From NCBI GenBank assembly GCA_964574875.1, contig CAZNOX010000001.1, forward strand, positions 80,206 through 144,205: a stretch of DNA of 64,000 nt, written 5' to 3'. This document shows positions 5,772-57,498 of this stretch, piece after piece (within the stretch, counting starts at the first letter, position 1; every line of letters begins with the position of its first letter). This DNA is from an uncultured bacterium. Lineage in GTDB: Bacteria > Macinerneyibacteriota > Macinerneyibacteria > Macinerneyibacteriales > DSCS01. Made by a program: the position numbers and the translations under genes. A model generated the notes under the pieces. The model saw nothing but the letters and a program-made list of their open reading frames with translations. It was not told the origin of the DNA and did not search any database.

Positions 5772-6668
5772 CTATTTTTTCTTTTTGATCAGGTTTTTAA
5801 TATAGCGTAAAGCCAGGCCGGTGGAAAGGAGAATAATCCCCGAAAAGTAGAGCCACTGGATGGTGCTGAAGACCGAATGAGAGAACTGGATCCCGAACAC
5901 GGTGAGGATCAGGTCGATGATGGCATAGAAAAGAAAACCCAGGAAGAGGGCATTTTTATGGGACGGGAAAAGACGGGCCCCTGTCCAATGAAGAAGGACG
6001 ATGAAACCCACGAGAAGCGCAAAGACAAAGAGGATCATGAGAAAGATCAGGACCGGGATCCCGATGATGGTGACAACAAGAAGGATCATGGCCACGGGAA
6101 GCAGGATGTAAAACCCCAGCCCGATAAAAAAGTATTTCAGGGCATAGGAGCTCATGTCGTCCACGAAGGTCTTGATACGCGAGCCCACAAGAAAGTTCAC
6201 GATGAGGACCATGATGAAGAGGATGATATAGAAGAAGATCTTGTCCACGAGGGAGGCGTAGCGATACCGTTCCGATAATGTCCGTCCGTTGACATGTTCG
6301 CCTTCCTCATATTGAGCCCGTGACAGCGATGAACCCGGCAACTGCGCATAAGCAGCTGAGATCTCATTTTCGGCGGTGAGAAGCGTGGAGTCTTTGATAA
6401 AGACATTCCCCGCCACTTGTCCCTTTCCGCCCATGGAGACTGTGGAGTCCACGAGGAAGAGATTCCCCAGGACTGAAGCATTCATGACACAGTCGCTTTT
6501 CTGGATGATCAGGTCCCCGTGGTACTCGCCGGTGACCTCCTCGCCTTCTTCCAGTCCTGACACAAGAGCGGCTGATTTCTCTGCTTTATCCAGGATGGTT
6601 TCTTCAGCTGAACTGACAACAGCGAAAAAAGCTAATGCGATCACGAGAAAGATGAGATGACGTCTCAT
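5772..6668 (-). CDS. Membrane protein with signal peptide, short beta-helix (bactofilin/polymer-forming-like) segment and 4-5 TM C-terminal domain
   Basis: Repeating GDLII/GNLFL/GNVFI strands, then hydrophobic LLVVTIIGIPV region. Confidence 0.55.
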   Translation of the reverse strand: MRRHLIFLVIALAFFAVVSSAEETILDKAEKSAALVSGLEEGEEVTGEYHGDLIIQKSDCVMNASVLGNLFLVDSTVSMGGKGQVAGNVFIKDSTLLTAENEISAAYAQLPGSSLSRAQYEEGEHVNGRTLSERYRYASLVDKIFFYIILFIMVLIVNFLVGSRIKTFVDDMSSYALKYFFIGLGFYILLPVAMILLVVTIIGIPVLIFLMILFVFALLVGFIVLLHWTGARLFPSHKNALFLGFLFYAIIDLILTVFGIQFSHSVFSTIQWLYFSGIILLSTGLALRYIKNLIKKKK

Positions 6669-6680
6669 TCCATGCCTCCT

Positions 6681-7967
6681 TTACCGGGCGTGAAGGTAGT
6701 GGATCACATCGGACGGAGTGATCACCCCTACCATTTTATCCCCTTCTTCTACTATAATAAGAGACACATTTTCTTTAAAAAATGTTTCTCTCACCTGGTC
6801 TGCGGGGGTGTTCTGATCCAAAAAGAGGACTCTCTTGTCCATGATCCCCTTGACGGGGATATGGAGCTGCTCTTTACGGCGCATATCCATGATCTTTTCC
6901 TTGGAGACCAGTCCCACGATCCGCCCGTTGTCATCTTCAACGGGGACAGTCCGGTAATGGCTATAGATGATCTTTTCGATGACGTCCCCGAGGCGTTCGT
7001 TTTCTCCCAGAGTAAAGACAGGACGCGACATGATGTCGGCAGCCCGGACTCCGGGGACGGCTTTCTGCTCCAAAAGGGAGAGAAGCTGCTGTCTGGCCTC
7101 TTTGACCGTGGTGTTCATCAGCGTGGCCGAAGCGGCTTTGATATGGCCTCCCCCTCCGAAAAAAGCCATGATCTCATTCATGTTGAGGTCATCGGCTGTG
7201 GTCTTTCCCACCATATGGGTCTTCCTTCCCATCCCCACAATGGCGAAAGAGGTCTGAAGCTCTTCTCTCACGTGGATACGCTGGAGGATATCGCTGATCC
7301 CGCCGACGATCTCATCCAGGTCCGCTGTCGCGATGTGAAGGGGCAGCCCGTTGATGGTGAAGGATTCCATGGACTCCATGAGCATCTCCTGCAATCTCTG
7401 CTGAAGGGGATTGAACTCTCTGTTGAGGAAGGCCAGGATATTCTCGGGGCGGGCGCCCCTTTTCATAAGTTCTGCCACTACAGCGACATCCCGGTCTGTG
7501 GTGGTGGAATAGGTCAGCGCTCCGGTATCCTCATAGATCCCGAGAAGAAAGAGCGAGGCCTCCACAGGGTTGATGAAGATATCCTTCTCCAGGAGTTTTT
7601 CAACGAGAAGGGTGGTCACAGCTCCGGTGGAGTCCACCCAGGACTCGTCTCCGGTGATGTCTCCTCCCGGATGGTGGTCATAGACCACCACCCTGGCGTC
7701 TGTCTTCTCAAGAAAAGCGGAGAAACGGCCGAGCCTCTGCCTCCGCCGCGTGTCCACCATGATGATCTCCGTGATCTCGTTCAGGTCATTGAAACGCGAG
7801 AATTTCTCTATGGTAAAATACTTGTAATGCATCTTGAGAAAGAGGGCGACATTCTCCCTTTTTTTCCCCAGGCTGAGCATGATCCCGTCGCCGTAGAGCT
7901 TCCTTGCAGCGGCCATCCCTGCCAGGGAGTCGAAGTCCATCCCTTCATGACTGATGATCACTCTCAT
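6681..7967 (-). CDS. DHH/DHHA1 phosphoesterase (NrnA-like) with a C-terminal CBS pair
   Basis: SHEGMDFDS, MVDT, YDHH, GIYEDTG, GGGGHIKAASA; CBS repeats from AADIMSRPV to GVITPSDV. Confidence 0.85.
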   Translation of the reverse strand: MRVIISHEGMDFDSLAGMAAARKLYGDGIMLSLGKKRENVALFLKMHYKYFTIEKFSRFNDLNEITEIIMVDTRRRQRLGRFSAFLEKTDARVVVYDHHPGGDITGDESWVDSTGAVTTLLVEKLLEKDIFINPVEASLFLLGIYEDTGALTYSTTTDRDVAVVAELMKRGARPENILAFLNREFNPLQQRLQEMLMESMESFTINGLPLHIATADLDEIVGGISDILQRIHVREELQTSFAIVGMGRKTHMVGKTTADDLNMNEIMAFFGGGGHIKAASATLMNTTVKEARQQLLSLLEQKAVPGVRAADIMSRPVFTLGENERLGDVIEKIIYSHYRTVPVEDDNGRIVGLVSKEKIMDMRRKEQLHIPVKGIMDKRVLFLDQNTPADQVRETFFKENVSLIIVEEGDKMVGVITPSDVIHYLHAR

Positions 7968-7968
7968 A

Positions 7969-10437
7969 TCAGTGGGCTTCCTCCCAGTTTTTCCCTGAAG
8001 AGACTTCAGCTTTCATGGGAACGGAAAGCGGGAACGGGGTGGCCTCCATGACCTCGCGGATGAGGGGAAGGGTGTGTTCGAGCGCACTCTCTTTCACTTC
8101 AAAGAGAAGTTCATCATGGATCTGAAGAAGAAGGCGCACATTCCCGTCATCAGCCCACTTGTCATGGACACGGATCATCACCTCCTTGATGATATCGGCG
8201 GCACTCCCCTGTATGGGGGTATTCACGGCGATACGTTCTGCCGCTTCACGCATCATGCGGTTTTTCCCCTGAAGCCCGGGGACGCGCCGTCTTCTGCCTG
8301 ACAGGACGTCCACCCAGCCCTTTTCCCTGGCGTTCCTGATGGTCCTGTCGATAAAAGACCTGACTCCGGAAAAGCGTTCAAAATAGCGCCCGATGAGGGC
8401 TTCAGCTTCGGCAAGGGGAATATCAAGCTGTGAAGAGAGGCTGAAGGCCGACTGGCCGTAGATGATCCCGAAGTTGACGGCTTTGGCCCGATGACGCATC
8501 TCAGAGTCTGCGGTGCCGAAGAGGCGCCGTGCCGTCTCACTGTGGATATCTCCTCCCTGGCGGAAGATCGAAATCAGATTCTCATCTCCGGAATAGTGCG
8601 CCATGATGCGGAGTTCCATCTGGGAATAGTCAGCCGAGACGAGGGAATACCCCTCATCGGCCACAAAAAGCTGGCGCATGCGCTTTCCCCACTCCCCGTA
8701 GATGGGAATATTCTGAAGATTGGGGTTTTTCGAAGAGAGCCGCCCCGTCGCCGTTCCGCAATAATCCAGGGTGGAATGGAGCCGCCCGTTTCTGTCCACA
8801 GCATCCAGGTAGGGAAGGATGTAGGTGGAGAGGATCTTCTGGATCTTCCGGTATTCCAAAAGCATCTCTCCCACGGGGTGGACAGAGGCGACCTTCTGAA
8901 GGACCGACTCATCCGTGGCATAACCCGTTTTGGTCTTCTTCAGCCGTCCGGGGATCTTCAAAGCCATCTTCTCGAAAAGGACGTCTCCCAGCTGCTTGGG
9001 AGAACGGATATTGAACTCTTCTCCGCATTCACGGTAGATCTCCTTTTCCCGGTCGGATGTGGCCTCTTCCAGTTCAGTCCTGTAGGCCTCCAGAAGCGTT
9101 GTGTCGATCTTCACTCCGTACTCTTCCATGCTCCTGATGACCTCCGGAAGCCGCAGTTCAGTCGTGTCCAGATAATCCCAGTGCCCGCGCTGTTCAAGCT
9201 GGGAACGGGCCTGCAAGAAAAAGTCGCGGAGTTCCTGTATCGTCCGGATGGAGCGTTGCTCATAAAACCCTTTTGCCGTGGACGCGGTCTCCGAGTCATG
9301 GGCCCAGTAGTCCAGCAGGCGGAGGTCCCGGATTTTGCAGGATGCGTCATGTTCCCTGAGGAAGGTATGGGCGTCGTAGGTCCAGAGGAGAAGCCCCGGG
9401 CGCTTGAGAAAACCGGGTTCTCCCGGAACCGTGTAATACTCTTCCGTCTCCACGCCTCCGAGAAAAAAGCCCTCCTCTCCCTCCATGAGGAGGAACTCCC
9501 CCTTCTCACAGTCAAAGGGGCCGCTCTCATAGATGACCTCTCTGCCGGGAGCAGGCTTCTCTTCGGCCTTGTGGGCGATATATTTCATAAGAGAGAGAAA
9601 ACGCTGCTGAGTGAAATAGTCCCTGATGAGCTCAGGATCATAGGCCGGGAACCTCGCCTCTTCAAAGTCCAGGTCCATGGGAATCTGCCTGTTGATCACC
9701 ACGAGTTTTTTGGAGAGACGGAGCATCTCCTCCTGTTCTCTGATCTGATCCCTGGCCCGGGGGTTGGGGATCTCGTCTGACTGTTCAATAATGGATTCCA
9801 CATCCCCCAGGGCTTTGATGAGGTTTTTCGCCCCCTTGGGGCCGATCCCCTTCACACCGGGGATATTGTCAGAAGCATCTCCCATGAGGGCCAGGTAGTC
9901 GGTAAAATGCTCCAGGCCGAACCCGTACTCCTCTTCAAAAACCTTTCTGTCATAGCGCTTGTCTTCTTTGGGGCCGCTTCTCACCACACTCACATGGTTA
10001 TCGATGAGTTGAAGAAGGTCTTTATCAGGAGTGTAGACCAGGACCTCACACCCCCTTCTCTCCTTCACCTTCTCTGTGATAGTCCCGATAATATCGTCGG
10101 CTTCATGTCCGGAGATCTCGATGCGTTTGATCCGGGCCAGATCAAGGAATGATTTGATGTTTGCGATCTGAAGGCTCAACTCATCGGGCATGGGTTTCCG
10201 GTTGGCTTTATAATCAGCAAAAAGCTCGTGGTTGTCTGTCTTGCCCCGGGAATCAAAGGCGACATAGAGAAAATCCGGACGATGAGCCTCCAGCAGCCCG
10301 AAGAGCTTACGTAAAAATCCGTACAGGGCGCCCACGGGCTCCCCGCGGGGATTGGTCAGGTTCTGACGTTGAAAAGCATAAAAGGCCTGATAGGCCAGGG
10401 CATTACCGTCCACAAGGAAAAAACAGTCAGGTTTCAT
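7969..10437 (-). CDS. polA: DNA polymerase I (intact 5' nuclease, vestigial 3'-5' exonuclease domain)
   Basis: LVDGNALAYQAF, EADDIIGT, motif A DYSQMELR, motif B KAVNFGIIYG, motif C QIHDEL; start ATG 10437 overlaps the upstream stop. Confidence 0.96.
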   Translation of the reverse strand: MKPDCFFLVDGNALAYQAFYAFQRQNLTNPRGEPVGALYGFLRKLFGLLEAHRPDFLYVAFDSRGKTDNHELFADYKANRKPMPDELSLQIANIKSFLDLARIKRIEISGHEADDIIGTITEKVKERRGCEVLVYTPDKDLLQLIDNHVSVVRSGPKEDKRYDRKVFEEEYGFGLEHFTDYLALMGDASDNIPGVKGIGPKGAKNLIKALGDVESIIEQSDEIPNPRARDQIREQEEMLRLSKKLVVINRQIPMDLDFEEARFPAYDPELIRDYFTQQRFLSLMKYIAHKAEEKPAPGREVIYESGPFDCEKGEFLLMEGEEGFFLGGVETEEYYTVPGEPGFLKRPGLLLWTYDAHTFLREHDASCKIRDLRLLDYWAHDSETASTAKGFYEQRSIRTIQELRDFFLQARSQLEQRGHWDYLDTTELRLPEVIRSMEEYGVKIDTTLLEAYRTELEEATSDREKEIYRECGEEFNIRSPKQLGDVLFEKMALKIPGRLKKTKTGYATDESVLQKVASVHPVGEMLLEYRKIQKILSTYILPYLDAVDRNGRLHSTLDYCGTATGRLSSKNPNLQNIPIYGEWGKRMRQLFVADEGYSLVSADYSQMELRIMAHYSGDENLISIFRQGGDIHSETARRLFGTADSEMRHRAKAVNFGIIYGQSAFSLSSQLDIPLAEAEALIGRYFERFSGVRSFIDRTIRNAREKGWVDVLSGRRRRVPGLQGKNRMMREAAERIAVNTPIQGSAADIIKEVMIRVHDKWADDGNVRLLLQIHDELLFEVKESALEHTLPLIREVMEATPFPLSVPMKAEVSSGKNWEEAH

Positions 10438-16941: not shown

Positions 16942-19693
16942 CTAAAAAGGAAGGATGGCCCCGATCTCAAAAAAGCTCCCCTGGTTATCCGGATCTTCAA
17001 GATCCCAGGCGTATCCCCCGCCCACAGTGAAAAACCCGGTGCTGATACGCCCCAGGACTCCCGCTGTGGCCACTGAGCCGTCGGCTTCCAGACGTCCCTG
17101 GTCGAAAAAGGCTGTGTCGATGAAGAGAGCTCCTTCTGCGATACTGTAATTGTAGCGGATCTCTCCGCTCAAGGCCCCGATGAGACGGCTGGGGATATCA
17201 GTGTTCAGCCCCCTGACGGTGACTCTTTTGTCATACCGGAAGCCTGTAAAGGGTTCCTGAAACGAGTGGTTCTCGCTCCGGATCCGGGGAAGGTCCTGGG
17301 GAGCAGGTTCTCCCCATTGTTTATGCACTTCCCCATAGAGTGAGACGACAAAGGGGGAGATCCTGCGAACCAGATAGGCATCGCATTTCAGGTAGGTGGA
17401 CAGATCTCTCTCTCCCGCGAAGGGAAGCGAAAAGGCGATCCCTGTATGAACTCCCGTCTCATGATAGGGGTAAAAAAGGCGGGGATGGCTGTTCTTGTAG
17501 ATATAAGAAAAATAGAGATAGGGGTCACTGTAATCCCTGGGAAGCTGAGTCTCATCTCCCGAAAACGAATCCCCGTTGAGGATGTCGGCCTTCCGGTACC
17601 CCCCTCCCGTTTCGAAGATCCGTGTCACATAGCGGTTATGCGGATGATCCACGGGGAGGGAGAGAGAGAGAGATCTGCCCCCCGCTGATTCGCTGTCGAA
17701 GTTCTTTTGAAAGATAATCTTCTGTGCTGTCTCCATGGGACCAGGCCGAGATCCCGATATCAAAGGCTGTGCTCTTATTGGTATAGGAGATATTATAGAA
17801 GATATCCTCCCAGTTGGCATCATCGATCCCGGCAAAGACCTGAAATGTATGCCATCCCATGGGTTCGGAAAAGACGGTCATGAACCCCGGGTAGACCTCT
17901 TCGTCCATATAGAGGGGAAGAAAACTGATGAGACGAAGATTCCTGAAGGGGCGGTACGGGCCGTTGAAGGCCCCCTCTTCGGGGATATTCTGATTCAGGG
18001 AAGCCCGGGGCTTGATGGTCATCCAGGCAGGACGGTCCACATCCCGGGTGACATCGGGTTCTCTGTGGGGGTCGATGAGGCACACGCGCATGGAAGAGCG
18101 CTCACGTGAGCTGATGCACAGGATGCCGTCATCTGTCCATTGCACGGGTTTTAGAAATCCCCTCTGCCGTGTCACCTGCCTCAGAGAGCCGTCTTTGATC
18201 TCCACTCTGAAGAGGGACGCTCTCTCCCTGTCATCCATGGCGAAGAGGACCGTCTGCTCATCAGGGGAGACCACCGGTGAAAACGGACGCTGGGGAAGCG
18301 GAAAGAGCTGAGCTGTCTCTGAAGGAATGTCGTAAAGGAAAAGATAGTATCTTCGTTCAGAAGGATGAAAGAGCGCCGCAGCCAGTGTGGACCCTTGTCC
18401 GGTGAGATCATAGATCTCTTCTCCGGAAAGAGGACTGAAAAGGGTCACGGGCTCTCCGTTCCCCCCTGTCCGGGCAATCACGGCGGTTCCGTGTCCGGTA
18501 TTCCTGAGGTAATAGAGCGTCCCGTTCATGGACACGGGATCGAAAGCGCGTTCATCCCGTGTCAACGCTCTCTCTCCGTGTCCCTGTTTGGAAAGGAAAT
18601 AGATGTCGCTGTAAAGAGATCCGTGTTTTCCCCGGATGGTCTTACCGTAGTAGAACCCCTTCTCATCGGCGAAGATTTTGCCGAAAAAGGGCTGTTCCGT
18701 GATCCGTTTCAGTCTCTGCCGGCGGGGGTCATACACATAGAGCCCCTGAGCCGGTTCCTTTGTCTTCCGTGTCCCCGTGATGATGAACCGGCCGTCTGCG
18801 GCCATGAGGCCATCCAGGACGTCAAAAGAGGGGATCTCAAGGTCTTCAGAGATCTCTGAAAGGCTTTCCAGGGAATCGGCCTTCTCCCTATAGTACTGTT
18901 CCATGGCCTTTCTCCAGCGCTTCGTGTAATCCTTGTAGGATTCGCCGAAACTCTCTTCGAAGGCCTTTTTAAAAAGAAACGTTCCGAAAAAATCACGTCT
19001 TTTAAAGAGACGGCCGAATTCGGCCGCCTTTTCAGGATGCTCGGCATAGAGAGTGCGGATCTGGGAAAATCCCTTGGCGTAGAGAAGAGGGCCGTCATCA
19101 GGCGTGATCCCCCATGTCTTCCATGAGCTGAAGAGTGCTGCGTTTTCCAGCCAGCGCTCTCCCCTCATGAGCCCCCAGGGCTCTAAAGCAAAAAACTGAG
19201 CATAACCTTCATGGACTTCAGCGGGGACATCCAGGGACGGGCCGAAGATATTCGTCCAGGATTTGGTGTTTTCAAAGATGAGGGCATGGACCATCTCATG
19301 GGCGATGACCTTTTCAAGCCAGGGCTGGTCCCCGGTGAAGTGGTCCAGATAACGTGAGGGAGAGACCCAGATGAAAAAGTATCCGTAGGGAAGTGTGGCT
19401 CCATTGGCGATATCGTCCACATCGGAGATGAAGATGGAATATTTCTTTTTGAAAGAGAGCCCCAGGTTTTTCTCATGCATGGCATAGACCTGTTCACTGA
19501 TGCCCCCCGCTTCACGGGCTGTCTCTTCAAGGCCGGTGCTGTAAATGATCCGGAAGTTCTCTGTCTCATAGACCCGCCAGGTGAGCTCGGGATGATTCCT
19601 GTGATTCATGAGGGAGAATGTTCCCAATCCCGCTACCGGGACTGCCGCCAGGAGAAAGAGGACACCACAGAGAGCAATTCGTTTCAAGACCAT
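16942..19693 (-). pseudogene. Frameshifted outer-membrane protein: gluzincin (MA-like) peptidase domain + beta-propeller + beta-barrel; split into ORFs 17636..19693 and 16942..17835
   Basis: Signal peptide, HEMVH...EGYAQFF, propeller-like repeats; frame 1 ends QISLSLPPRGSSA* and frame 2 continues SLSLPVDHPH to a C-terminal FFEIGAILPF beta-signal; the switch falls in the (TC)7/G6 tracts. Confidence 0.75.
17660..17673 (-). repeat. (TC)7 dinucleotide simple sequence repeat at the frameshift site
   Basis: Plus strand GAGAGAGAGAGAGA at 17660-17673; adjacent C6 run at 17678-17683. Confidence 0.9.
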
Positions 19694-27155: not shown

Positions 27156-27227
27156 TCCTCCGTAGCTCAACGGTAGAGCAACCGGCTGTTAACCGGTTTG
27201 TTGCTGGTTCGAGTCCGGCCGGGGGAG
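27156..27227 (+). tRNA. tRNA-Asn (GTT), CCA not encoded
   Basis: Cloverleaf: acceptor TCCTCCG/CGGGGGA, D-arm GCTC/GAGC, anticodon arm ACCGG-CT-GTT-AA-CCGGT, T-arm with TTCGAGT, discriminator G. Confidence 0.97.
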
Positions 27228-36460: not shown

Positions 36461-36557
36461 AGTTCCCCCTTTCACACAACTATAATGAAACTTGCCCCGA
36501 TTTTCAAGTGCTATTTATCTCCTTGCAAGCATGGGGAAGCCTGCTATTCTCAAGAGG

Positions 36558-37256
36558 ATGAAAAAGATCATTCTTTCCCTGCTCCTCATCCATCTTGTCT
36601 CCCCTGTTCTCTTTTCGGCTGAAATATGCGAGTATAAGGTCACCGCTTACGGCATCTCCTTTGCCCGGGCGACGATCGTCACAAGAGAACAGAACGGCCG
36701 CCTTGACCACTATGTCCATGTGAAGAACACTTTTCCCGCTTCTCTCATCCGCTCAGTGGACAACCGCTATCTGACCCAGATCGATATCAAGACAGGGTCC
36801 CCTTTGAAACAGGAAAAATACCTGGGAGGACTGAACGGGGAGTATCACATCAACATCTTTACACCGGGAGAGGACGGGTTCTTCGGTGACGGTAAACATT
36901 ATCAGGCCCCTGACACACCTCTTCACACGCTCTTTTCTCTCTTCGAACTGATCCGCCGGACGCGCCCTGTCAAACCAGCTCGATTTTCCGCAGTCTCCTG
37001 CAACACCCTATGGACCGTGACCGTGATGCCTCTCTCTTCTGCCTCCTACCGCCTGACTTTTGCATCGGATGCTCCCATCAATGAGTTAAAAACACGCTAT
37101 GACGACATCTTTTTAAAAGAGGTCTTCTGGAACTCCGGAGAAGTGGACCTTTTCTTCAATCCCCATGGCCCATTGGACAAGGCCGTTCTCAACTCCTTTT
37201 CACCTCCGGTGACACTCTCACTTACCGGGTGGAGCATGTCTCTCAATAAACCTTGA
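36558..37256 (+). CDS. Exported hypothetical protein (possibly DUF3108-like)
   Basis: Signal peptide MKKIILSLLLIHLVSPVLFSA; TTGCAA-N16-TATTCT promoter at 36523-36550 immediately upstream. Confidence 0.55.
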   Translation: MKKIILSLLLIHLVSPVLFSAEICEYKVTAYGISFARATIVTREQNGRLDHYVHVKNTFPASLIRSVDNRYLTQIDIKTGSPLKQEKYLGGLNGEYHINIFTPGEDGFFGDGKHYQAPDTPLHTLFSLFELIRRTRPVKPARFSAVSCNTLWTVTVMPLSSASYRLTFASDAPINELKTRYDDIFLKEVFWNSGEVDLFFNPHGPLDKAVLNSFSPPVTLSLTGWSMSLNKP

Positions 37257-49136: not shown

Positions 49137-50060
49137 TTATTTTATGGTTCCCAGGACAAGCCCCAGGAGAGCCTGCCGGACGGGAACACCGTTATGAGCT
49201 TGTTCAAAATAGATGGCCCGATGATCATCGTCCACATCTTCTGAGATCTCGTCCACCCTCGGGAGGGGATGCATGATGTAAGTGCTCTCTCCGAGAAGGG
49301 CGATGCTCTCCCTGTCCAGGATGTAGGATCCTTTCACACGCTCATATTCCATGGGGTCGAAAAAGCGTTCTTTTTGAATGCGCGTGCAGTAGAGAAAATC
49401 AAGTGAGGATGCATCCTGATCCAAAAGATCACGCTCTTCGAAATCGATTTTTTTCGTTTTGAGAAAATCTGTGTAGTGTTCGGGCATCTTCAGCTCTTTG
49501 GGAGAGATGAAGACGAGCCTGACGTTGAAAAAAGAGAGGGCGATGAGCAGAGAATGGGTCGTCCGGCCGTATTTCAGATCTCCCATGAGTCCGATGGTCT
49601 TGCCGTCGAGCGAGCCCTTCTTTTCCATCATGGTAAAGATATCCAGAAATGTCTGTGTGGGATGCTGATTGGCGCCGTCTCCGGCATTGATCACCGGGAC
49701 AGTGGCCGCCTGGGAAGCGCGCCGGGCTGCCCCTTCGATCTTATGGCGCATGACAATGGCATCGCAATATCCCGTGATCGTCTTGATGGTATCGGTGAGT
49801 GACTCCCCCTTCTGAACCGAAGAGGAGGCTGAGGACGAAAACCCGAAAATACTCCCCCCCTGCTGAAGGACCGCTGTCTCGAAAGAGAGCCGTGTCCTCG
49901 TCGAGGGTTCGAAAAAGAGTGTGGCCACGGTCTTCCCTTGTAAAAACCCTTTATGTTTCCCCTCTTTGACTTCAGCAGACTTTTCCATGAGATAAAGCAA
50001 TTCATCCTTATCCATATCATTCAGCGAAATGAAAGACCGCCCTGTAAAATTAAGCCCCAT
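49137..50060 (-). CDS. pyrB: Aspartate carbamoyltransferase catalytic chain
   Basis: FFEPSTRTRLSF, KGESLTDT, NAGDGANQHPTQ, GDLKYGRT, MHPLPR. Confidence 0.97.
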   Translation of the reverse strand: MGLNFTGRSFISLNDMDKDELLYLMEKSAEVKEGKHKGFLQGKTVATLFFEPSTRTRLSFETAVLQQGGSIFGFSSSASSSVQKGESLTDTIKTITGYCDAIVMRHKIEGAARRASQAATVPVINAGDGANQHPTQTFLDIFTMMEKKGSLDGKTIGLMGDLKYGRTTHSLLIALSFFNVRLVFISPKELKMPEHYTDFLKTKKIDFEERDLLDQDASSLDFLYCTRIQKERFFDPMEYERVKGSYILDRESIALLGESTYIMHPLPRVDEISEDVDDDHRAIYFEQAHNGVPVRQALLGLVLGTIK

Positions 50061-50562
50061 TCTTCTCCCCCTTCTCATCTTGTTTTCTGTGCTCTTTAAA
50101 AAACAGGATTATACAGACAATACCAACAAAAATAAAAGCGTCAGCTGCGTTGAAGACAGGCCAGCGCGTCTGCGCATTGATCCCGAAATCAAGAAAATCA
50201 CGGACGCTGTTGAATCTTATCCGGTCGAGGATGTTCCCGATGGCTCCGCCGAAGATAAGGCCGTAGGCGGCTAAGACCACCGGACGCTGCTGAGTGATCC
50301 CCCGGAAGGCAAAGATCAGGATCACCACGACGATGAGAGAGACCCAGAGCAGAAGCGAGGAGAATCCCTGAAAGATCCCGAAGGCGATCCCCGAATTTTT
50401 CAGATAAGTGAGCCGGAAGAGATCCCCGAGGACAGAAATGCTCTGGTTCAGCATCATGCGGGATGCGATCCACTCCTTGGTGATGATGTCCACCGCCAGG
50501 GAGAAGAGGAAAGCGGCGGCGATGATGATGTGGCTATTTTGTCTTATTCTTTTCATATTCAC
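50050..50562 (-). CDS. lspA: Lipoprotein signal peptidase II
   Basis: DIITK, KNSGIAFG, GGAIGNILDR, VRDFLD, VFNAAD. Confidence 0.95.
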   Translation of the reverse strand: MNMKRIRQNSHIIIAAAFLFSLAVDIITKEWIASRMMLNQSISVLGDLFRLTYLKNSGIAFGIFQGFSSLLLWVSLIVVVILIFAFRGITQQRPVVLAAYGLIFGGAIGNILDRIRFNSVRDFLDFGINAQTRWPVFNAADAFIFVGIVCIILFFKEHRKQDEKGEKNGA

Positions 50563-50917
50563 TTTTACAGGTTATACAGCGGACAGCATAGGGCATGACT
50601 TCCAGACGCTCGTCTGAGATCCTGGCTCCGCAATCCTGACAGATCCCGTAGGTCCCCTCTTCGATCCTTTTTAACGCAGCATCGATGGCTGCCAGAATGA
50701 TCTCTTCGGAGTTCTTCAGTTTAAACCCCAGTTCCGCTTCTGTGAGGGAGTCTGCAATATCAGCCAGATGGATGGGATAGGCGGAGTCGCCGTACTCTTT
50801 GGCGCTGGAATGGTGGATGTGCTGGTCCTCAATGGAGTCCAGGTCTTCCAGGATACTGTTTTTCAATTCGGTCAATATGCTTTTATAATACTCGAGGCGT
50901 TCTTTTTTCATGGGCAC
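50534..50917 (-). CDS. TraR/DksA C4 zinc-finger protein
   Basis: HLADIAD, ALKRIEEGTYGICQDC..ERLEVMPYAVRCITC. Confidence 0.92.
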   Translation of the reverse strand: MPMKKERLEYYKSILTELKNSILEDLDSIEDQHIHHSSAKEYGDSAYPIHLADIADSLTEAELGFKLKNSEEIILAAIDAALKRIEEGTYGICQDCGARISDERLEVMPYAVRCITCKSEYEKNKTK

Positions 50918-53677
50918 TCACCTGCCTTCTTCTTGGACAACGCGGACACAGCGGCTGCACAGGTCCGGATGGTTCTCACTTTTTCCTACTGTCGGGGAAT
51001 ATTCCCAGCAACGCGAACACTTCTCATGAGGCGATTTGACAGCCCCTATGGAGAGGCCCGGCCAGTCGCTGCACGGGCTCATCCCGTCCTTTTTTTCCAC
51101 AAAGACAGAAGAGACGATGTTCATCCGGCGCAGATCGTCCAGATGGCTTCTCAGGAAAGCTTCATCGTCCTGATCGTCTGTATGAAGATAAATATAGGCA
51201 TCCAGAGAGTGTCCGATCTCTCCGGAGTTTCGTTTGGCTTCAAGGATACGGCGGATATCGTCACGTAACGAGTCAAGACGCTCCCATTTTTCTGTGAGCT
51301 CTCTCTCCTCAGGGCAACTGATCTCCGGCCAGAGGGACAGATGAACGCTCTCTTCCAGAGAGGCCATCTCACGGAGATATCCCCAGACTTCTTCGGCCGT
51401 AAAGGGGATGAGAGGGGCAAGCATCCGGGTCAGGGCGGTGACCGTCTCCCAGACTACAGTCAATGTGGCCCTCCGGCTCATCCATTCTTTCCCGTCGGCA
51501 TAGAGGTTGGATTTACTCCCGTCCAGGTAAGACGAGGAGAGTTTCACCGTGCAATAGTTGTGAATCGTATGGAAGACCTTGTGAAACTCAAAAGCCTCAT
51601 AGGCCTTGTCCACATCCCTGGTGAGGGATTTCAGTTCCAGCATCATGTGACGGTCGATCTCAGGCATCTTCTCATAATCCACACGCCCCTTCTCCACATC
51701 AAACCCGTGGAGGACACCCAGCATAAAGCGCAGGGTGTTCCTGATCCTCCGGTAGGCTTCTGCGATGCGTTTCATGATCTCTGCAGAGAGCGGGACATCG
51801 TTACGGTAGTTTTCAGAAGCGATCCAGAGCCTGAGGACGTCAGCTCCGTACTCCCTGATGACATCCTGGGGGTCCACACCGTTCCCCTGGGACTTGGACA
51901 TCTTCCGTCCTTCTCCGTCGACGATAAAACCGTGGGTCAGGACTGTTTTGAAGGGAGCTCTCCCCTGTTCTGCCGTACTCAGGGTAATGGCGCTGTTGAA
52001 CCATCCCCTGTGCTGGTCCGACCCTTCGAGATAGAGGTCAGCGGGGAGGCCAAGAGCCTCAGACTTTTCCACAACACTCTTGTAGCTGGATCCCGATTCA
52101 AACCAGACGTCCAGAATATTCATATCTTTTTCAAGCCCCGCATGGCCGCAGGAGGGGCAGCGGTTGAGTTCCCCCAGGATCTCGTCTTCTGTCCTGGTGA
52201 ACCATCCGTCAGAGCCCTCTTCACCGATAAACTCCGCAGCTCGCTTCATGATCTTCTCGTCCACGGCATACTCAGAGCATTCCGGGCAGTGAAACATCGT
52301 GATGGGGACTCCCCAGCTTCTCTGCCGTGAGATACACCAGTCGGGACGGTCCTGGACCATCCCCCTGATCCTGTTTTCTCCCCATTCGGGGATCCATTCT
52401 GTCTGTCCGATCTCATCGAGGATATGCTTTCTGAGATCCTTATGGTCGATCTTGACAAACCACTGCTCCGTGGCCCGGAAGATGACAGGCTTTTTGCACC
52501 GCCAGCAATGGGGATAGGAGTGAGAGATGGTTCCGGCGTGAACGAGAGCCTTCTTCTGCCGCAGAAGTTCCATGATAGGCTCATTGGCTTCAAAGACCGA
52601 GACGCCCTCCATGGGTTTGAACTCCGCAGTAAAACGCCCGTTGTCATCCACGGGGTTCAATATGGGAAGGCCGTACTTCAGCCCTGTGATATAATCCTCC
52701 TGCCCGTGTCCCGGGGCAGTATGGACACATCCGGTCCCTGTATCATCAGTCACATAGTCCGCCAGGACGACCCGGCTCAGACGTCCGTCAATGAAGGGAT
52801 GTCTCGCTTCGCGCCCTTCCAGCTCTCGTCCGGTGAACTTCTCCGTGACGGTGTACTCTGTGATCCCGATCTCCTCCATCATCTTTTCAAGAAGAGGTTC
52901 TCCGACGATCCAGTGTTCGCCGTTCACAGCCACATCCACATAGGTGAAGTCAGGATGAAGAGCGATGGCCACATTGGCGGGGAGGGTCCATGGCGTGGTG
53001 GTCCAGATGATGAAAAAAGTCCCCTTCTTTTCACTGTCTTCAAACTTGACCGTGATGGAGGGAGAGGCATGATCCCCGTATTCGATCTCGGCTTCTGCCA
53101 GTGCTGTGGTGCAGTGTGAACACCAGTAAACGGGTTTTTTCTGTCTGAAGATATAACCGTCCATCACAAGTTTTGTAAAGATCTCGACGATCCCCTTTTC
53201 ATAACTCCTGTCGATGGTCAGGTAAGGCTTGTCCCACTCTCCGAAGATCCCCAGCCGTTCAAAATCCCTGCGCTGTTTTTCCACGTATTTCAAAGCGTAA
53301 TTCCGGCACTTCCTCCGGAATTCAGGAACCGAAAGAGCTTCGCTCCCCGGCTGTTTGGAGACTTCCAGTTCAATGGGGAGACCGTGACAGTCCCATCCGG
53401 GGATATAGGGGGTCTTGTACCCCTTGAGTGATTTGTACTTCAGGATAAAGTCTTTTAATGTCTTGTTCAGGGCATGCCCCATGTGGATCATGCCGTTGGC
53501 ATAGGGAGGGCCGTCGTGGAGAATATATTTCCCGCCGTTTTCCCTTTTTTTTATGATCTCTTCATAGATCCCCTTGTCCCGGCTCCATTGTTCAATGATC
53601 TCTTTTTCCCGGACAGGGAGATTGGCTCTCATGGGAAAATCGGTTTTGGGTAAATTCAAAGTCTCTTTGTAATCCAC
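50918..53677 (-). CDS. ileS: Isoleucyl-tRNA synthetase (type 1, with C-terminal zinc finger)
   Basis: LHDGPPYANG, HMGH, PGWDCHGLP, DWCISRQR, KMSKS, CSRCW...CSRC. Confidence 0.98.
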   Translation of the reverse strand: MDYKETLNLPKTDFPMRANLPVREKEIIEQWSRDKGIYEEIIKKRENGGKYILHDGPPYANGMIHMGHALNKTLKDFILKYKSLKGYKTPYIPGWDCHGLPIELEVSKQPGSEALSVPEFRRKCRNYALKYVEKQRRDFERLGIFGEWDKPYLTIDRSYEKGIVEIFTKLVMDGYIFRQKKPVYWCSHCTTALAEAEIEYGDHASPSITVKFEDSEKKGTFFIIWTTTPWTLPANVAIALHPDFTYVDVAVNGEHWIVGEPLLEKMMEEIGITEYTVTEKFTGRELEGREARHPFIDGRLSRVVLADYVTDDTGTGCVHTAPGHGQEDYITGLKYGLPILNPVDDNGRFTAEFKPMEGVSVFEANEPIMELLRQKKALVHAGTISHSYPHCWRCKKPVIFRATEQWFVKIDHKDLRKHILDEIGQTEWIPEWGENRIRGMVQDRPDWCISRQRSWGVPITMFHCPECSEYAVDEKIMKRAAEFIGEEGSDGWFTRTEDEILGELNRCPSCGHAGLEKDMNILDVWFESGSSYKSVVEKSEALGLPADLYLEGSDQHRGWFNSAITLSTAEQGRAPFKTVLTHGFIVDGEGRKMSKSQGNGVDPQDVIREYGADVLRLWIASENYRNDVPLSAEIMKRIAEAYRRIRNTLRFMLGVLHGFDVEKGRVDYEKMPEIDRHMMLELKSLTRDVDKAYEAFEFHKVFHTIHNYCTVKLSSSYLDGSKSNLYADGKEWMSRRATLTVVWETVTALTRMLAPLIPFTAEEVWGYLREMASLEESVHLSLWPEISCPEERELTEKWERLDSLRDDIRRILEAKRNSGEIGHSLDAYIYLHTDDQDDEAFLRSHLDDLRRMNIVSSVFVEKKDGMSPCSDWPGLSIGAVKSPHEKCSRCWEYSPTVGKSENHPDLCSRCVRVVQEEGR

Positions 53678-53721
53678 GTCTCTTTCCTCCTCTAAAGCCC
53701 CTTGCGGGGTGTTGCCGTCTT

Positions 53722-54663
53722 CTACCAGCTCAATCCGTAGGAAATACGGTGGGTGGCCCCCATATCACCGTACGGAGCATAAGCATAATCCAGATGCCCG
53801 TCGAGTTTTTTGATCTTTTCACGGACTCCGAAACCGAAACTGATGCAATCCATGACATCATAATTCTCTTTGTGGCGGTATCCGGCCCTCACTGAAAGCC
53901 AGTCCGTCCACAGATACTCTACGCCTCCCGAAGGGGTGTATGTCTGCTCCCAATAGCCCTCGATATCCGCAGTCAGGACCAGTTTGTCTTTCATCTCCCC
54001 GTTTCTGAAGGTGTAGGAGATCCCCGCATTTGCCGTGAGCGGCATGGGAAAATCCCGCAGCTCAGTGTATCCGATCCGTGTTGTGGATGCATTCCGGACA
54101 GAGGCGGCCAGTTTGATCCGCTGATCCATAAGCATGATCTTGATTCCGCCGTTGAATCCCCAGTTGAGATCATCATACCCGTCGAGTCCGGTGTGTTCAT
54201 AGATCCCCGAGACGCTGCCCCCGAGAAACATATTCTCACTCACGGGGAGCCCCACGCCGAAACTGCCGGCTATATTGTAAAAATGAAGGCTCTCGCCTGT
54301 CTCCAGGCCTGTATTATCCCTTTCGTCCATGGTGAACGTGATCCCCCGGAGGTCGAGCCCGAAGATCATGCCGAAATACTTTTTTGCAAAAGCCAGGTAT
54401 TCAGCCCGCACATCACCGAACATCTCATTATGGGAAAAGGTGATCTCCATGTGCTCCACATGGGCCAGGCCTGCAGGATTCAGGCAGAAGGCATCCAGCC
54501 CGGACAAGACCGCCAGGCCTCCTCCGCCCAGAGCCAGGCTGCGTGCAGACATGTTCATCCGGAGAAGCTGTGCGCCTGTCCGGCCGGTTCCGGTGGTCTC
54601 AAAAGCCCGGGCCCCGCCTGCAAGGATCACAGCAAAGAGTAAAATGGCCAGAATCTTTTTCAT
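53722..54663 (-). CDS. PorV/PorQ family outer-membrane barrel (T9SS-associated, FadL-like fold)
   Basis: Signal peptide; GAQLLRMNMSARSLALGG, NPAGLA, SHNEMFGD, RAGY, DYAYAPYGDMGATHRISYGLSW. Confidence 0.82.
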   Translation of the reverse strand: MKKILAILLFAVILAGGARAFETTGTGRTGAQLLRMNMSARSLALGGGGLAVLSGLDAFCLNPAGLAHVEHMEITFSHNEMFGDVRAEYLAFAKKYFGMIFGLDLRGITFTMDERDNTGLETGESLHFYNIAGSFGVGLPVSENMFLGGSVSGIYEHTGLDGYDDLNWGFNGGIKIMLMDQRIKLAASVRNASTTRIGYTELRDFPMPLTANAGISYTFRNGEMKDKLVLTADIEGYWEQTYTPSGGVEYLWTDWLSVRAGYRHKENYDVMDCISFGFGVREKIKKLDGHLDYAYAPYGDMGATHRISYGLSW

Positions 54664-54672
54664 AGCCCCCCC

Positions 54673-55065
54673 TTAATCGATAAAGACGAATTTGCCCTTG
54701 TAGGCTTCGTCGTCAGTCCCTGTCGCCGTGGGAAACGTCACGGTGAGGGCATAAAAGTAGACCCCGCCTGCCACGACCCAGCCGTTGTCGTTTTGGCCGT
54801 TCCAGGTGACTGTTCCCGTGGAGAGGAGGGCCAGGTCAGTGACCTTGACCAGGCGGACCCGGTCGCCGTTGAGATTGTAAATCGTCAATTCCGCTGTGAC
54901 AGCGTCTGCCCTGATATTGAAATCGATCCCGCCATTGGCAGAGTTGTTTTCTCCGAAACGCCACGGATTGGGGTGTGGTGCCGGTTCCACGGCAAAGAGC
55001 ACCCCGGTGAGCACAAATGCCATAAGGAAAAGCGTCAGGAATTTTGAAAAAGCTTTCAAAATCAA
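54673..55065 (-). CDS. Small exported protein consisting only of a T9SS type-A CTD / FlgD-Ig-like domain
   Basis: Signal peptide then PHPNPW, LTIYNLNGDRVR, TWNGQNDNG..VAGGVYFY, terminal KGKFVFID. Confidence 0.72.
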   Translation of the reverse strand: MILKAFSKFLTLFLMAFVLTGVLFAVEPAPHPNPWRFGENNSANGGIDFNIRADAVTAELTIYNLNGDRVRLVKVTDLALLSTGTVTWNGQNDNGWVVAGGVYFYALTVTFPTATGTDDEAYKGKFVFID

Positions 55066-55090
55066 CCTCCTTTGGTTTCAGATACTACGT

Positions 55091-55915
55091 TTATTTCACT
55101 TCTCTGTCAAGTTCTTTAATGACACGGGCGATGACACGCGCCAAAAGCTCTCCGCTTTGAGAAGCCGTGGTCACAACATCCTCAAAAGACCCTTTATTTG
55201 CGCCTTTTCCGCCGAATTTATTGGCGATGACAGAAAATCCCAGAACTCGCATTCCGCAATGGACAGCGGCGATCACCTCCGTGACCGTGGACATGCCCAC
55301 AGCATGCGCTCCCAGAAGACTCACCATGCGGTATTCGGCATCCGTCTCCATCGAGGGGCCCCGTAATCCGAAATAGACTCCTTCTTTCAGAGGAACCCCT
55401 TCGTCAGCAGCGGCCTTCCGGGCCAGCCTCTGCAGTTCCGGGTCATAAGCTTTGTCCATTTCAGGAAAGCGCGGGCCGAGACTGTCATCATTGGGCCCGG
55501 TGAGAGGGTTGCCCCCTGTGAAGTTGATATGGTCTGTGATCAGCATGAGGTCACCGGGGTCAAGATGGCTTCCCACTCCGCCGGCGGCATTGGAGACGAT
55601 ATAGACCCGGCATCCCAGAAGGCGCATGACGCGCACGGGGAAGGCGATGTCAGCAGGCCCGTAGCCCTCATACAAGTGAAAACGGCCCTGCATGAAGAGG
55701 ACATTCCGGTTTCCCACGCGGTTCATGGCAAGGATCCCCTCATGGGTCCCCACCGTGGAGAGGGGAAACCCGGGGATCTCCTGATAGGGGATCTCGGCCA
55801 GACGTTCTCCCGACCGGGCCAATCCACCGAGTCCGGTTCCCAGGACCACGCCGATGCCGGGGTCTGAAAAGCCCCTTTCCCTGAGATATTCTGCTGTCTT
55901 CCGGTATTGTTCCAT
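55091..55915 (-). CDS. punA: Purine-nucleoside phosphorylase (trimeric PunA/XapA type)
   Basis: VVLGTGLG, GRFHLYEG, SNAAGG, GPRFPEM, GPSMET, VGMST. Confidence 0.93.
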   Translation of the reverse strand: MEQYRKTAEYLRERGFSDPGIGVVLGTGLGGLARSGERLAEIPYQEIPGFPLSTVGTHEGILAMNRVGNRNVLFMQGRFHLYEGYGPADIAFPVRVMRLLGCRVYIVSNAAGGVGSHLDPGDLMLITDHINFTGGNPLTGPNDDSLGPRFPEMDKAYDPELQRLARKAAADEGVPLKEGVYFGLRGPSMETDAEYRMVSLLGAHAVGMSTVTEVIAAVHCGMRVLGFSVIANKFGGKGANKGSFEDVVTTASQSGELLARVIARVIKELDREVK

Positions 55916-55954
55916 AGCATCCTTCCTTTTTAAAACGGCTTTCCCGGCCCGGGG

Positions 55955-56812
55955 TCAAAAAATGAAATTGATGATCAGGATGAGAAACCACCGGACAATG
56001 ATCATCACAGCGATGGCCACCACAGGGGTAAAATCCAGCCCGATCTTGTAAGGAGGAAAGAGGCGCCGGAGCGGCATGAGGAGGGGCTCGGTGAGAAAGA
56101 CGAGGTTTTCCATGATAAAGTTGTTCTGGGGGACGGCAAACCAGGAAAAGAGAGCCCTGAGAATGATGAGAATGACCCAGAGGGACATAAACATGTTGAC
56201 CAGAGCTTCCAGCCCGCGGCCGAGGTTTTCCATGAAAGAGACAGCGTCTCCCAACAGGCCGCTGAGCAGGGTCATGATGAACGCACTGAGAAGAAGGACA
56301 AAAAAGATCCCCAGGAATGGTGTATAATCCCTCCTCTTTCCGCACAGCCCGGGGAAGACCCTTCTCCAGGGGGCGATGACCGTGTCGCTTGCAAAATGGA
56401 TGATCCGGGCGAGCTCACCGTAAGCATAGGGGCCCCGCATGAGGATGAAAAAGTCGGCGATGAAAAGAAAACAGAAGAGGTAGAAAAAATAGGTCACGAA
56501 AGAGGCTGTCATATAGACGAGCCCTCCGAACGCTGTCTTGTCCGGATTGTCAAAAATCCAGAAAAAGGAATAGAGGCTGACAAAGATGATGGTGACATAG
56601 AGGGCACGGACATCATGTTTCCGCGCAGTCACCTTCTTGTGCCCGAAAAGGCGCAGAACAGGTTCTGTCGCGTAATAGATCACCTTATAAAGACGGTTGA
56701 AGATGATCTGTTTTCTGAACGGCACAAAAAGCCGGATGATAAAAAACATGATGTAGGTGTTCAGGAGGATGACAATCAAGTTCAGAGAATATGTAAACCG
56801 TACAATATGCAT
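55955..56812 (-). CDS. yggT: YggT family membrane protein with two tandem YggT domains
   Basis: ATEPVLRLF, DTVIAPWRR..DYTP, LTEPLLMPLRR..GLDFTPVVA; start ATG 56812 abuts the yggS stop. Confidence 0.75.
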   Translation of the reverse strand: MHIVRFTYSLNLIVILLNTYIMFFIIRLFVPFRKQIIFNRLYKVIYYATEPVLRLFGHKKVTARKHDVRALYVTIIFVSLYSFFWIFDNPDKTAFGGLVYMTASFVTYFFYLFCFLFIADFFILMRGPYAYGELARIIHFASDTVIAPWRRVFPGLCGKRRDYTPFLGIFFVLLLSAFIMTLLSGLLGDAVSFMENLGRGLEALVNMFMSLWVILIILRALFSWFAVPQNNFIMENLVFLTEPLLMPLRRLFPPYKIGLDFTPVVAIAVMIIVRWFLILIINFIF

Positions 56813-57498
56813 CAGACACCCCTCTCTCCAAATAGTGCAGTCCCGATCCGTATGAGATTGCTTCCTTCTTCCACAGCGACGAGGTAATCCTGGCTCATTC
56901 CCATGGAAAGCCACTCCACAGCGATGTTGTTTCCGTTGTTCCAGGACCGTAATGTCTCGTAGATCCTGTAAGCTTCCGCCGCTTTTTTATGAAGAAGGCT
57001 CTTATCATCAGACAGCGGCAGCATGGTCATGAGTCCGGTCACCCTGACCCTTTCGCATTCTGCGGCCTCTCCCATGACCTCCCCGACCCTTTCAGGGGAA
57101 AACCCGTACTTGGACTCTTCCCCGGCGACATTGACTTCTATAAAAAGATCCATCTCCCTGTCCCGTTTCACAGCAGCCAGATCCAGCGCTCTCAGAAGGT
57201 CGATGCTGTCCACGGACTGGATACAGGAAAAGAGGTCGAATGTGTATTTGATCTTGTTCTTCTGCAGATGCCCGATGAAATGGCGCCGGGCTTCGGGGAC
57301 GAAAGGATACTTCTCCCGCGCTTCCTGTATGCGGTTTTCGCCTACCATATCGACTCCGCCCCGAAGAGCCTCTTTGACCTCGTCCAGGGAGCGGGTCTTT
57401 GTCGCTGCGCACAGAGCCACTCTCTGTGAGAGCCCCTTTTTCGCCTGAACAGTCTCAACGGCCTCCCTGACGCGGAGGATATTCTCTTTAATACTCAT
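56812..57498 (-). CDS. yggS: PLP homeostasis protein YggS/PLPBP
   Basis: CAATKT, GENRIQEA, HFIGHLQKNK, IEVN, LSMGMSQDY, EGSNLIRIGTALFG. Confidence 0.96.
   Translation of the reverse strand: MSIKENILRVREAVETVQAKKGLSQRVALCAATKTRSLDEVKEALRGGVDMVGENRIQEAREKYPFVPEARRHFIGHLQKNKIKYTFDLFSCIQSVDSIDLLRALDLAAVKRDREMDLFIEVNVAGEESKYGFSPERVGEVMGEAAECERVRVTGLMTMLPLSDDKSLLHKKAAEAYRIYETLRSWNNGNNIAVEWLSMGMSQDYLVAVEEGSNLIRIGTALFGERGV

Follow-up and report, generated by a model that had tools for sequence, protein, structure and literature searches.

Two adjacent genes on the minus strand of a 64,000-nt stretch of DNA from an uncultured bacterium (contig CAZNOX010000001.1 of assembly GCA_964574875.1, positions 80,206 to 144,205, forward strand; hereafter "the window") encode, in this order, a small exported protein and an outer-membrane β-barrel which, judging from sequence comparison, appear to form the passenger-less, minimal member of a widespread cassette, in which a gene for a cargo protein ending in a sorting-type C-terminal domain (CTD) is followed by one for its own cognate barrel. 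The small protein is read as a signal peptide joined to a single immunoglobulin (Ig)-like domain, while the barrel belongs to the PorV/PorQ family. Both genes lie between punA and ileS, as the initial annotation of this sequence had placed them, and its description of the small gene as a signal peptide plus a sorting-type Ig domain without a passenger is upheld by the domain assignments and by a reading frame of 134 codons. The results presented here concern the domain identities and folds of the two proteins, their conservation and the selection acting on them, and the association, across phyla, of such barrels with upstream genes that end in a CTD; with these in hand it seems probable that the pair makes up a constitutive outer-membrane complex of two proteins, with the Ig domain docked on its own barrel.

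In the literature, sorting domains of the CTD type and carriers of the PorV type are regarded as parts of the T9SS (type IX secretion system) of Bacteroidota and the wider FCB (Fibrobacteres–Chlorobi–Bacteroidetes) group, CTD proteins are said to be missing from species that have no T9SS, and reviews describe T9SS genes and CTD proteins as absent outside the FCB (PMC11285876); a literature search for T9SS or PorV in Elusimicrobiota, Aerophobetes, Firestonebacteria and Mcinerneyibacteriota found nothing relevant. Bacteroidota already provide the principle of a CTD that is bound by a cognate PorV-like barrel from the neighbouring gene. What is new is that a wholly passenger-less, Sec-exported CTD is fixed together with a barrel as a core pair of a non-FCB candidate phylum, that this pair is recognised as the minimal form of a cassette occurring widely in phyla on which the search turned up no T9SS literature, and that PorV/PorQ-like barrels occur fused to peptidoglycan-binding domains. 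In several phyla outside the FCB, cargo-CTD genes are commonly followed each by a PorV/PorQ-like barrel gene of its own, and in one phylum a form without a passenger has become fixed as a core pair subject to purifying selection; both findings bear on the view that such components belong to the T9SS only. The minimal pair, of 105 + 293 mature residues, also offers a compact natural system for studying how a CTD is recognised and held by a carrier barrel, and one that could show whether the interaction functions without a translocon, quite apart from pointing to a conserved, possibly new component of the outer membrane of an uncultured phylum.

The small protein and the barrel

The open reading frame (ORF) of the small gene was listed as 54673-55065, from which the initial annotation took a length of 130 residues. 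This is correct for the ORF as listed, but translation almost certainly begins with the second TTG, that at 55059, which gives a protein of 128 residues (gene at 54673-55059). It is preferred because a Shine-Dalgarno sequence, AGGAGG (55066-55071), lies 6 nt upstream of it, as against 0 nt from the first TTG at 55065, and because the orthologues are 120-128 residues long, with a TTG start common to the four lineages compared. Residues 1-23 (MKAFSKFLTLFLMAFVLTGVLFA, encoded at 54991-55059 and followed by VEP) read as a Sec-type signal peptide without a lipobox cysteine, and the orthologues have equivalent N-termini. The mature protein starts VEPAPHPNPW, and its residues 24-128 (54676-54990) hold the Ig-like domain, running from the PNPW motif to a terminal KGKFVFID; in the family of small orthologues described below (the small family), the mature protein starts 2-8 residues ahead of the domain. 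Since the stop-to-stop frame around the gene comprises 134 codons only, and since punA upstream encodes a complete PNP_UDP_1 protein, no passenger can be recovered by supposing a frameshift, an explanation that is ruled out additionally by the equal architecture of the orthologues.

As to the identity of the domain, the small protein passes the Pfam model FlgD_ig (PF13860; 32.6 bits, cutoff 27, E 8e-8), and it falls below the gathering threshold of CHU_C (PF13585, the type-B CTD; 21.9 against 27 bits), for which several of its orthologues carry precomputed matches. In NCBIfam the protein aligns best with the C-terminal 75 residues of the model for the PorU sortase. An AlphaFold2 (AF2) model made from an 8-sequence alignment has an Ig-like β-sandwich with a predicted local distance difference test score (pLDDT) of 86, residues 30-128 being mostly above 90, preceded by a helix (residues 2-23) and a low-confidence linker (24-29); the closest folds are FlgD and the uncleaved CTD of Porphyromonas gingivalis PorU, with weak E-values of around 3e-3. 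The predicted fold is accordingly given here as the FlgD_ig/CTD fold, it being understood that the fold alone cannot tell a CTD from FlgD. A flagellar FlgD is ruled out by the Sec signal peptide, by the missing FlgD N-terminal region and by the lack of flagellar neighbours. Type-A CTDs are marked by an Ig-like 3+4 β-sandwich, a Gly that opens β4 and a Lys in the last strand (PMC11285876, PMC10994853), and the small protein has the sandwich (in the AF2 model), the Gly (G65 is invariant in the small family and nearly invariant among the 56 tails discussed below) and the terminal-strand Lys (in KGKFVFID); where it departs from the type is in not being the C-terminus of a passenger.

The second gene (53722-54663, minus strand), whose ATG follows the TAA of the small gene after 9 nt, as the initial annotation had it, encodes a protein of 313 residues. 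This passes the model NF033709, "PorV/PorQ family" (100.8 bits against 90, E 1e-28, covering residues 29-311), and identical or near-identical barrels are named [quoted passage not shown] by NCBI. A profile of the barrel and 13 homologues, searched against all PDB sequences, matched Flavobacterium johnsoniae PorV (6h3i_F) with an E-value of 3e-37, as compared with about 5e-10 or weaker for FadL/TodX-type channels. The AF2 model (pLDDT 79.6) has 14 β-strands and a 52-residue N-terminal hatch-like region, and a Foldseek comparison placed PorV from the SprA translocon structures at the top (8gl6_F, with a template modelling (TM) score of 0.72, and 6h3i_F), followed by TodX and FadL. The signal peptide comprises residues 1-20 (ending ARA, then FE), the loops are short and the terminal residue is W; outer-membrane barrels usually end in an aromatic residue. 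PorP and SprF models are absent from the NCBIfam and Pfam matches of the barrel at E<=1, and the BamG model is matched to a negligible degree only (E 0.02; 13.9 bits, cutoff 250). Both profile and structure comparisons thus point to a 14-strand FadL-fold protein of the PorV/PorQ family, closest to PorV, and the hidden Markov model (HMM) matches of the small protein and of the barrel lie well beyond chance.

Conservation of the pair and its counterparts in other phyla

The organism of the window belongs to Candidatus Mcinerneyibacteriota, as its nearest genome loci are labelled (L011 has a barrel 88% identical to that of the window), a phylum that NCBI taxonomy places among the candidate phyla, outside the FCB group. 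A HMMER scan of 1.8 billion representative proteins, together with a profile search of 5.8 billion clusters, yielded a discrete small family of 120-128 residues (P0001-3, P0022, P0033, P0040, P0057, P0171-3), set apart from generic CTD proteins by a gap in E-value (1e-36 as against 1e-10), and all of its members that were read consist of a signal peptide and this one domain. Gene contexts were read for the window and for loci L001-L008, L011, L012 and L091-L099. The order punA, small gene, barrel, ileS was found in 10/10 of the small-family contexts examined, so that the pairing of the two genes, the conservation of which had been proposed as a check, is indeed conserved; the full order is (yggS-yggT-[divIVA])-punA-small gene-barrel (309-318 residues)-ileS-dksA-lspA-pyrB-pyrI, with a gap of 1-12 nt between small gene and barrel in the orthologous loci. 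Between lineages, isoleucyl-tRNA synthetase (IleRS) is 55-64% identical, the barrel 37-47% and the small protein 31-42%, and the G+C content of the loci ranges from 29 to 53%. Comparison of the closer lineages gave ratios of non-synonymous to synonymous substitution rates (dN/dS) of 0.09-0.16 (small gene), 0.06-0.09 (barrel) and 0.03-0.06 (ileS), so that purifying selection acts on both genes of the pair. From this and from their conservation it follows that both are functional, vertically inherited core genes and not a remnant. In 135 kb of Mcinerneyibacteriota sequence, the pair provides the only CTD match and the only barrel match; the window itself contains no T9SS machinery genes, in agreement with the initial annotation, and no further CTD or barrel ORFs.

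Counterparts further afield were sought by scanning a genome collection with a 6-sequence barrel alignment and the most conserved barrel motif, which gave 80 loci, with barrels 24-32% identical, in Elusimicrobiota, Aerophobetes, FCPU426, Firestonebacteria, Hydrogenedentota, WOR-3, Rhodothermales and further groups, the distant barrel homologues considered numbering 81. At about 50 of the 80 loci, an HMM built from the small family only matches the extreme C-terminus of the gene directly upstream of the barrel, and when this HMM was iterated once the domain was found to end 58/69 of the adjacent same-strand upstream genes. The background at the same loci is far lower, with 6/52 downstream neighbours and 26/325 other genes ending in the domain, so that the enrichment upstream corresponds to an odds ratio of 61 (58/69 against 26/325; Fisher p 1e-37). 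The mature Ig domain of the window matches the iterated CTD HMM with an independent E-value (i-E) of 2e-26, and the entire mature small protein aligns end to end with these C-terminal domains. When 56 tails (54 from upstream proteins of other phyla, plus the small proteins of the window and of L012) were scanned at E<=0.01, 39 matched FlgD_ig, 39 CHU_C and 19 Por_Secre_tail (PF18962), and the tails have in common the pattern YPNPF ... IYT.xGELV ... WDG.N..G..VAsGVY.Y ... K...I(K/R). The complete upstream proteins are of 300-1984 residues (median 978) and carry modules such as subtilase, NosD/beta-helix, DUF11 and fn3; among the loci compared, a version without a passenger was found in Mcinerneyibacteriota only.

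Within L013-L090, examples of the cassette are L024:1070-5962 + 5959-6894, L052:3187-5892 + 5929-6807 and L023:1687-4254 + 4396-5535. In six Rhodothermales loci (L043, L046, L072, L074, L085, L087) the barrel stands between two CTD-ended genes (e.g. L043:3997-5835, 5851-6873 and 6870-9728), of which the upstream one encodes 612 residues and the downstream one, overlapping the barrel stop by 4 nt, a GH38 alpha-mannosidase-like protein of 952 residues with FlgD_ig/Por_Secre_tail. Eight loci from Elusimicrobiota (L038, L039, L044, L059, L061, L062, L078, L088) have a conserved protein of ~407 residues without Pfam matches after the barrel (L038:6950-8173), and in L040 and L084 (Melioribacteraceae, Marinimicrobia-like) the downstream gene encodes a TIG/IPT-domain protein of 420-428 residues; these ~407-residue and TIG/IPT proteins are possible third components of the cassette. 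Some related barrels have extensions, which, being C-terminal, are hence periplasmic: FlgD_ig + OmpA_C + TPR (in FCPU426 and Firestonebacteria), SH3_3, OmpA_C alone, or TPR. Extended barrels are found at L020:5926-8070, L028:5941-8046, L033:5986-7401, L037:5974-7413 and L029:5822-7390, and by their length those of L034, L035, L045, L051, L057, L067 and L082 are also extended. They could represent a carrier barrel fused to a PorE-like peptidoglycan anchor, a kind of outer-membrane tether that is undescribed.

The proposed complex and its alternatives

Characterised members of the PorV/PorQ family hold CTD-type domains non-covalently. The extracellular loops of PorV bind type-A CTDs (PMC10994853), the uncleaved CTDs of PorU and PorZ remain bound to PorV and PorQ (PMC10202324), and type-B substrates require an SprF-like barrel encoded directly downstream, apparently in a stoichiometric manner (PMC12618676); in such systems it is adjacent genes that encode the cognate CTD-barrel pairs (PMC12618676, PMC10202324), and the arrangement that identifies them, a barrel gene conserved directly downstream of a CTD-ended gene, is the one found here. 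It is because of the analogy with PorU-PorV, PorZ-PorQ and the type-B CTD-SprF/PorP pairs, together with the gene-order statistics, that docking is proposed. Once exported through Sec and relieved of its signal peptide, the small protein would consist of 105 residues, an Ig-like domain of the type found as a rule at the C-terminus of large secreted proteins, where it serves for sorting or anchoring; this would then dock, non-covalently and stoichiometrically, on its cognate barrel and stay there uncleaved. Translational coupling of the two genes, which is likely, would suit synthesis at a ratio of 1:1. The pair would thus be the anchor-only core of a cargo/anchor cassette, now a constitutive core component of the envelope in Mcinerneyibacteriota.

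Physical binding, its 1:1 stoichiometry, the side of the membrane and the physiological role of the pair are matters that we infer from comparison. By analogy with PorV the domain would be at the cell surface, a periplasmic location being the alternative. As regards its role, our preferred guess, and a weakly supported one, is that the pair is structural or that the Ig domain caps or stabilises the barrel, because the pair is core, lacks a passenger and is embedded in a division/envelope gene cluster next to lspA. The initial annotation had suggested a dedicated ligand, plug or decoy for the barrel; the pairing statistics make a dedicated relationship between domain and barrel well founded, but plug and decoy are pure conjecture. 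A general shuttle role of the kind that PorV proper performs is argued against by the pattern of one barrel per cargo in the relatives. A bolder reading, which we put forward tentatively and regard as unlikely, is that in diderm phyla beyond the FCB (Elusimicrobiota, Aerophobetes, FCPU426, Firestonebacteria, Mcinerneyibacteriota) the CTD + PorV/PorQ-like-barrel cassette constitutes an autonomous surface-display or export module that needs neither the translocon nor the motor of the T9SS, with the Mcinerneyibacteriota pair as its bare core, an Ig "handle" sitting permanently on the barrel in a housekeeping and possibly essential capacity. Were that so, the interaction between carrier and CTD would predate the T9SS, or exist independently of it.

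Among known systems, the closest likeness is to PorU-PorV and PorZ-PorQ of the P. gingivalis T9SS attachment complex, where an uncleaved Ig-like CTD is bound to a 14-strand barrel of the PorV/PorQ family: it is the C-terminus of PorU that the small protein matches best in NCBIfam and the PorU CTD that is a top fold match, and the barrel passes the family model to which PorV and PorQ belong. However, PorU and PorZ are enzymes or carriers of 750-1100 residues whereas the pair here has no passenger, the barrel is much smaller and has short loops, the host lies outside Bacteroidota and the FCB, and the pair has no known context of translocon, sortase or anionic lipopolysaccharide (A-LPS). The operons of Bacteroidota that encode a type-B CTD substrate and then its own SprF/PorP-like shuttle, plus PorE (PMC12618676, PMC9143113), follow the same gene logic, an order that implies stoichiometric, cognate pairing. 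In F. johnsoniae and P. gingivalis the type-B substrate, the SprF/PorP barrel and the peptidoglycan-binding PorE have been proposed to form a static wall-anchored complex (PMC12618676), and the barrels of related phyla that are fused to OmpA_C or TPR mirror this PorE. The small family also yields CHU_C matches (that of the window protein scoring below the cutoff), but the barrel here is of the PorV/PorQ family with no PorP/SprF match, and there is no cargo moiety. PorA of P. gingivalis (PGN_0123), which binds PorV and signals to PorXY (PMC12152298), is likewise a small, Sec-exported protein whose CTD is the functional part and which is found bound to PorV; unlike the small protein, it has 246 residues with a 135-residue N-terminal domain, is modified with A-LPS, signals to PorY and is not encoded beside porV. 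Lastly, in the BamG-BamH pair of the Bacteroidota β-barrel assembly machinery (BAM) complex (PMC12578637), a 14-strand barrel of FadL fold docks its partner via its extracellular face, and the paralogous pair BamG2-BamH2 sits in one operon, an arrangement that the present pair may share; there, however, the partner of BamG is a large surface lipoprotein, whereas here the BamG match is negligible and no linkage to BamA is seen.

There are several points that weigh against the docked pair as proposed. The initial annotation had seen a full type-A CTD signature in the small protein, and this did not survive: TIGR04183, the type-A CTD model, scores 14.8 bits against a cutoff of 23 and PF18962 (Por_Secre_tail) gives no match at E<=1, the model that passes instead being FlgD_ig. 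FlgD_ig is a general Ig module, a match to which does not in itself prove a role as a sorting signal, and it is giant subtilases, in which FlgD_ig is repeated 11-15 times in tandem, that the small-family profile matches most strongly. On the side of the barrel, the assignment to the PorV/PorQ family stands, with NF033709 and a PorV-like fold behind it, but the score is far below the cutoff of both the PorV equivalog NF033710 (22.4 against 250) and the PorQ equivalog NF033711 (66.1 against 220). Its extracellular loops, as predicted, have 5-17 residues each and 56 altogether, and are short where those that PorV wraps round the CTD are long. The conservation of these predicted loops is 0.51 as compared with 0.59 for strands and periplasmic turns; as they are neither long nor specially conserved, the mode of binding may differ from the loop-wrapping of PorV. 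No translocon is known that would bring the Ig domain to the cell surface in this lineage, and FlgD_ig is met with at the C-terminus of related barrels, in fusions which show that such a domain can be placed on the periplasmic side.

This last point leads to what is, of the rival explanations, one that is unlikely yet deserves mention before the others, namely a complex on the periplasmic side: the Ig domain would attach to the barrel's periplasmic face, or to the cell wall, as a split form of the barrel-FlgD_ig-OmpA_C fusions that tethers or organises the outer membrane. It draws on the periplasmic extensions of the related barrels (FlgD_ig+OmpA_C+TPR, SH3_3, OmpA_C), on the lack of a known translocon and on the position of the pair within a division and envelope gene cluster; however, a peptidoglycan-binding domain is lacking from the small protein, whose HMM fits the CTDs of the upstream cargo (i-E 1e-3 to 1e-8) much better than it fits the FlgD_ig domains fused to barrels (about 0.1), and a separate CTD protein is still encoded upstream at the loci where the barrel is fused. 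That the pair might instead belong to a T9SS encoded elsewhere in the genome, the barrel being a PorV/PorQ and the small protein a minimal cargo or a PorA-/Plug-like regulator occupying the carrier or translocon, is a somewhat more doubtful proposition still. The PorV-family identity of the barrel fits it, as does the precedent of PorA as a small CTD protein bound to PorV (PMC12152298). Set against these are equivalog scores far under the cutoffs (22 against 250 for PorV, 66 against 220 for PorQ), the lack of any T9SS gene or other CTD protein both from the 64 kb of the window and from orthologous loci totalling 135 kb, the reported absence of T9SS genes outside the FCB phyla (PMC11285876), outside which NCBI puts this phylum, and the use in related phyla of one adjacent barrel per cargo, the opposite of a general PorV serving many.

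A further suggestion, that the barrel is a FadL-type uptake channel for hydrophobic compounds to which the small Ig protein is unrelated or loosely accessory, would account for the FadL and TodX fold matches and for weak matches to Toluene_X and UPF0164, and it is true that PorV-like and UPF0164 barrels occur also in phyla without T9SS. Against this, the barrel profile is far nearer to PorV than to FadL/TodX, the pair is invariant with its 1-12 nt spacing across deep lineages, and CTD-ended upstream genes are strongly enriched across phyla, all of which makes the suggestion improbable. There is finally the thought that the pair is a functionless, decaying remnant of a cargo cassette from which the passenger has been deleted. 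Every relative outside Mcinerneyibacteriota has a cargo of 300-1984 residues, and loss of a passenger is the likely history of the pair; however, the dN/dS of 0.09-0.16 for the small gene, the retention of length and architecture (and of start-codon type where compared) at 55-64% IleRS identity, and the freedom from frameshifts and internal stops leave almost no room for decay, which is effectively refuted by selection and deep conservation.

Two observations on the distribution of the domain may be added here. The subtilases with tandem FlgD_ig domains (P0021, P0023, P0025) are of 1292-2295 residues, and in them the domain also serves as an internal repeat. P0083 (JGI 3300075153 contig, gene at 4318-4680) is a protein of 120 residues with a signal peptide and FlgD_ig only and with no barrel neighbour; its context is unrelated, with a response regulator, a sigma-70 factor and a TPR protein upstream.

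The locus and its surroundings

The conserved upstream neighbour punA (55091-55915, minus strand) encodes a purine nucleoside phosphorylase of the PNP_UDP_1 family and, as first noted, stops 25 nt short of the start listed for the small gene. The conserved downstream neighbour ileS (50918-53677, minus strand) lies 44 nt past the barrel stop and is followed on the same strand by dksA/traR, lspA, pyrB and pyrI. The 9-nt spacer between the two genes of the pair, GGGGGGGCT (54664-54672, minus strand), forms together with the stop codon of the small gene a Shine-Dalgarno-like AAGGGGG, which is consistent with translational coupling at this junction. A sigma-70-like promoter match, TTGACA-17-TAGTAT (10/12 positions, a match to consensus only), falls within the 3' end of punA at 55110-55082 on the minus strand, and might possibly serve as a promoter of the pair's own. 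A terminator scan, at the level of consensus, found no terminator-like site on the minus strand from the small gene through the barrel to ileS. Among public RNA runs, looked through for signs of co-transcription, none was found to contain the region. An Rfam scan of the window gave no match near the pair, its sole gathering-level match being a tRNA gene at 27156-27227 (plus strand).

In the window (50050-57498) and in L091, L096, L098 and L099 the pair is set within the order yggS-yggT-(divIVA)-punA-[pair]-ileS-dksA-lspA-pyrB-pyrI-marR. The neighbourhood from yggS to lspA is presumably the tail of a Firmicutes-type division cluster (ylmE-ylmG-divIVA-ileS-lspA); divIVA is missing here in the lineage of the window and present in more distant relatives. 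Locus L012 (DSCS01000018.1), which is labelled "Bacillota bacterium SpSt-1200", has the full Mcinerneyibacteriota synteny and an IleRS 81% identical to that of the window, and its Bacillota label is probably wrong. Elsewhere in the window, three genes at 17636-19693 (minus strand), 5772-6668 (minus strand) and 36492-37256 (plus strand) encode signal-peptide proteins of 685, 298 and 254 residues respectively with zero Pfam matches, which are uncharacterised envelope or secreted proteins of Mcinerneyibacteriota.

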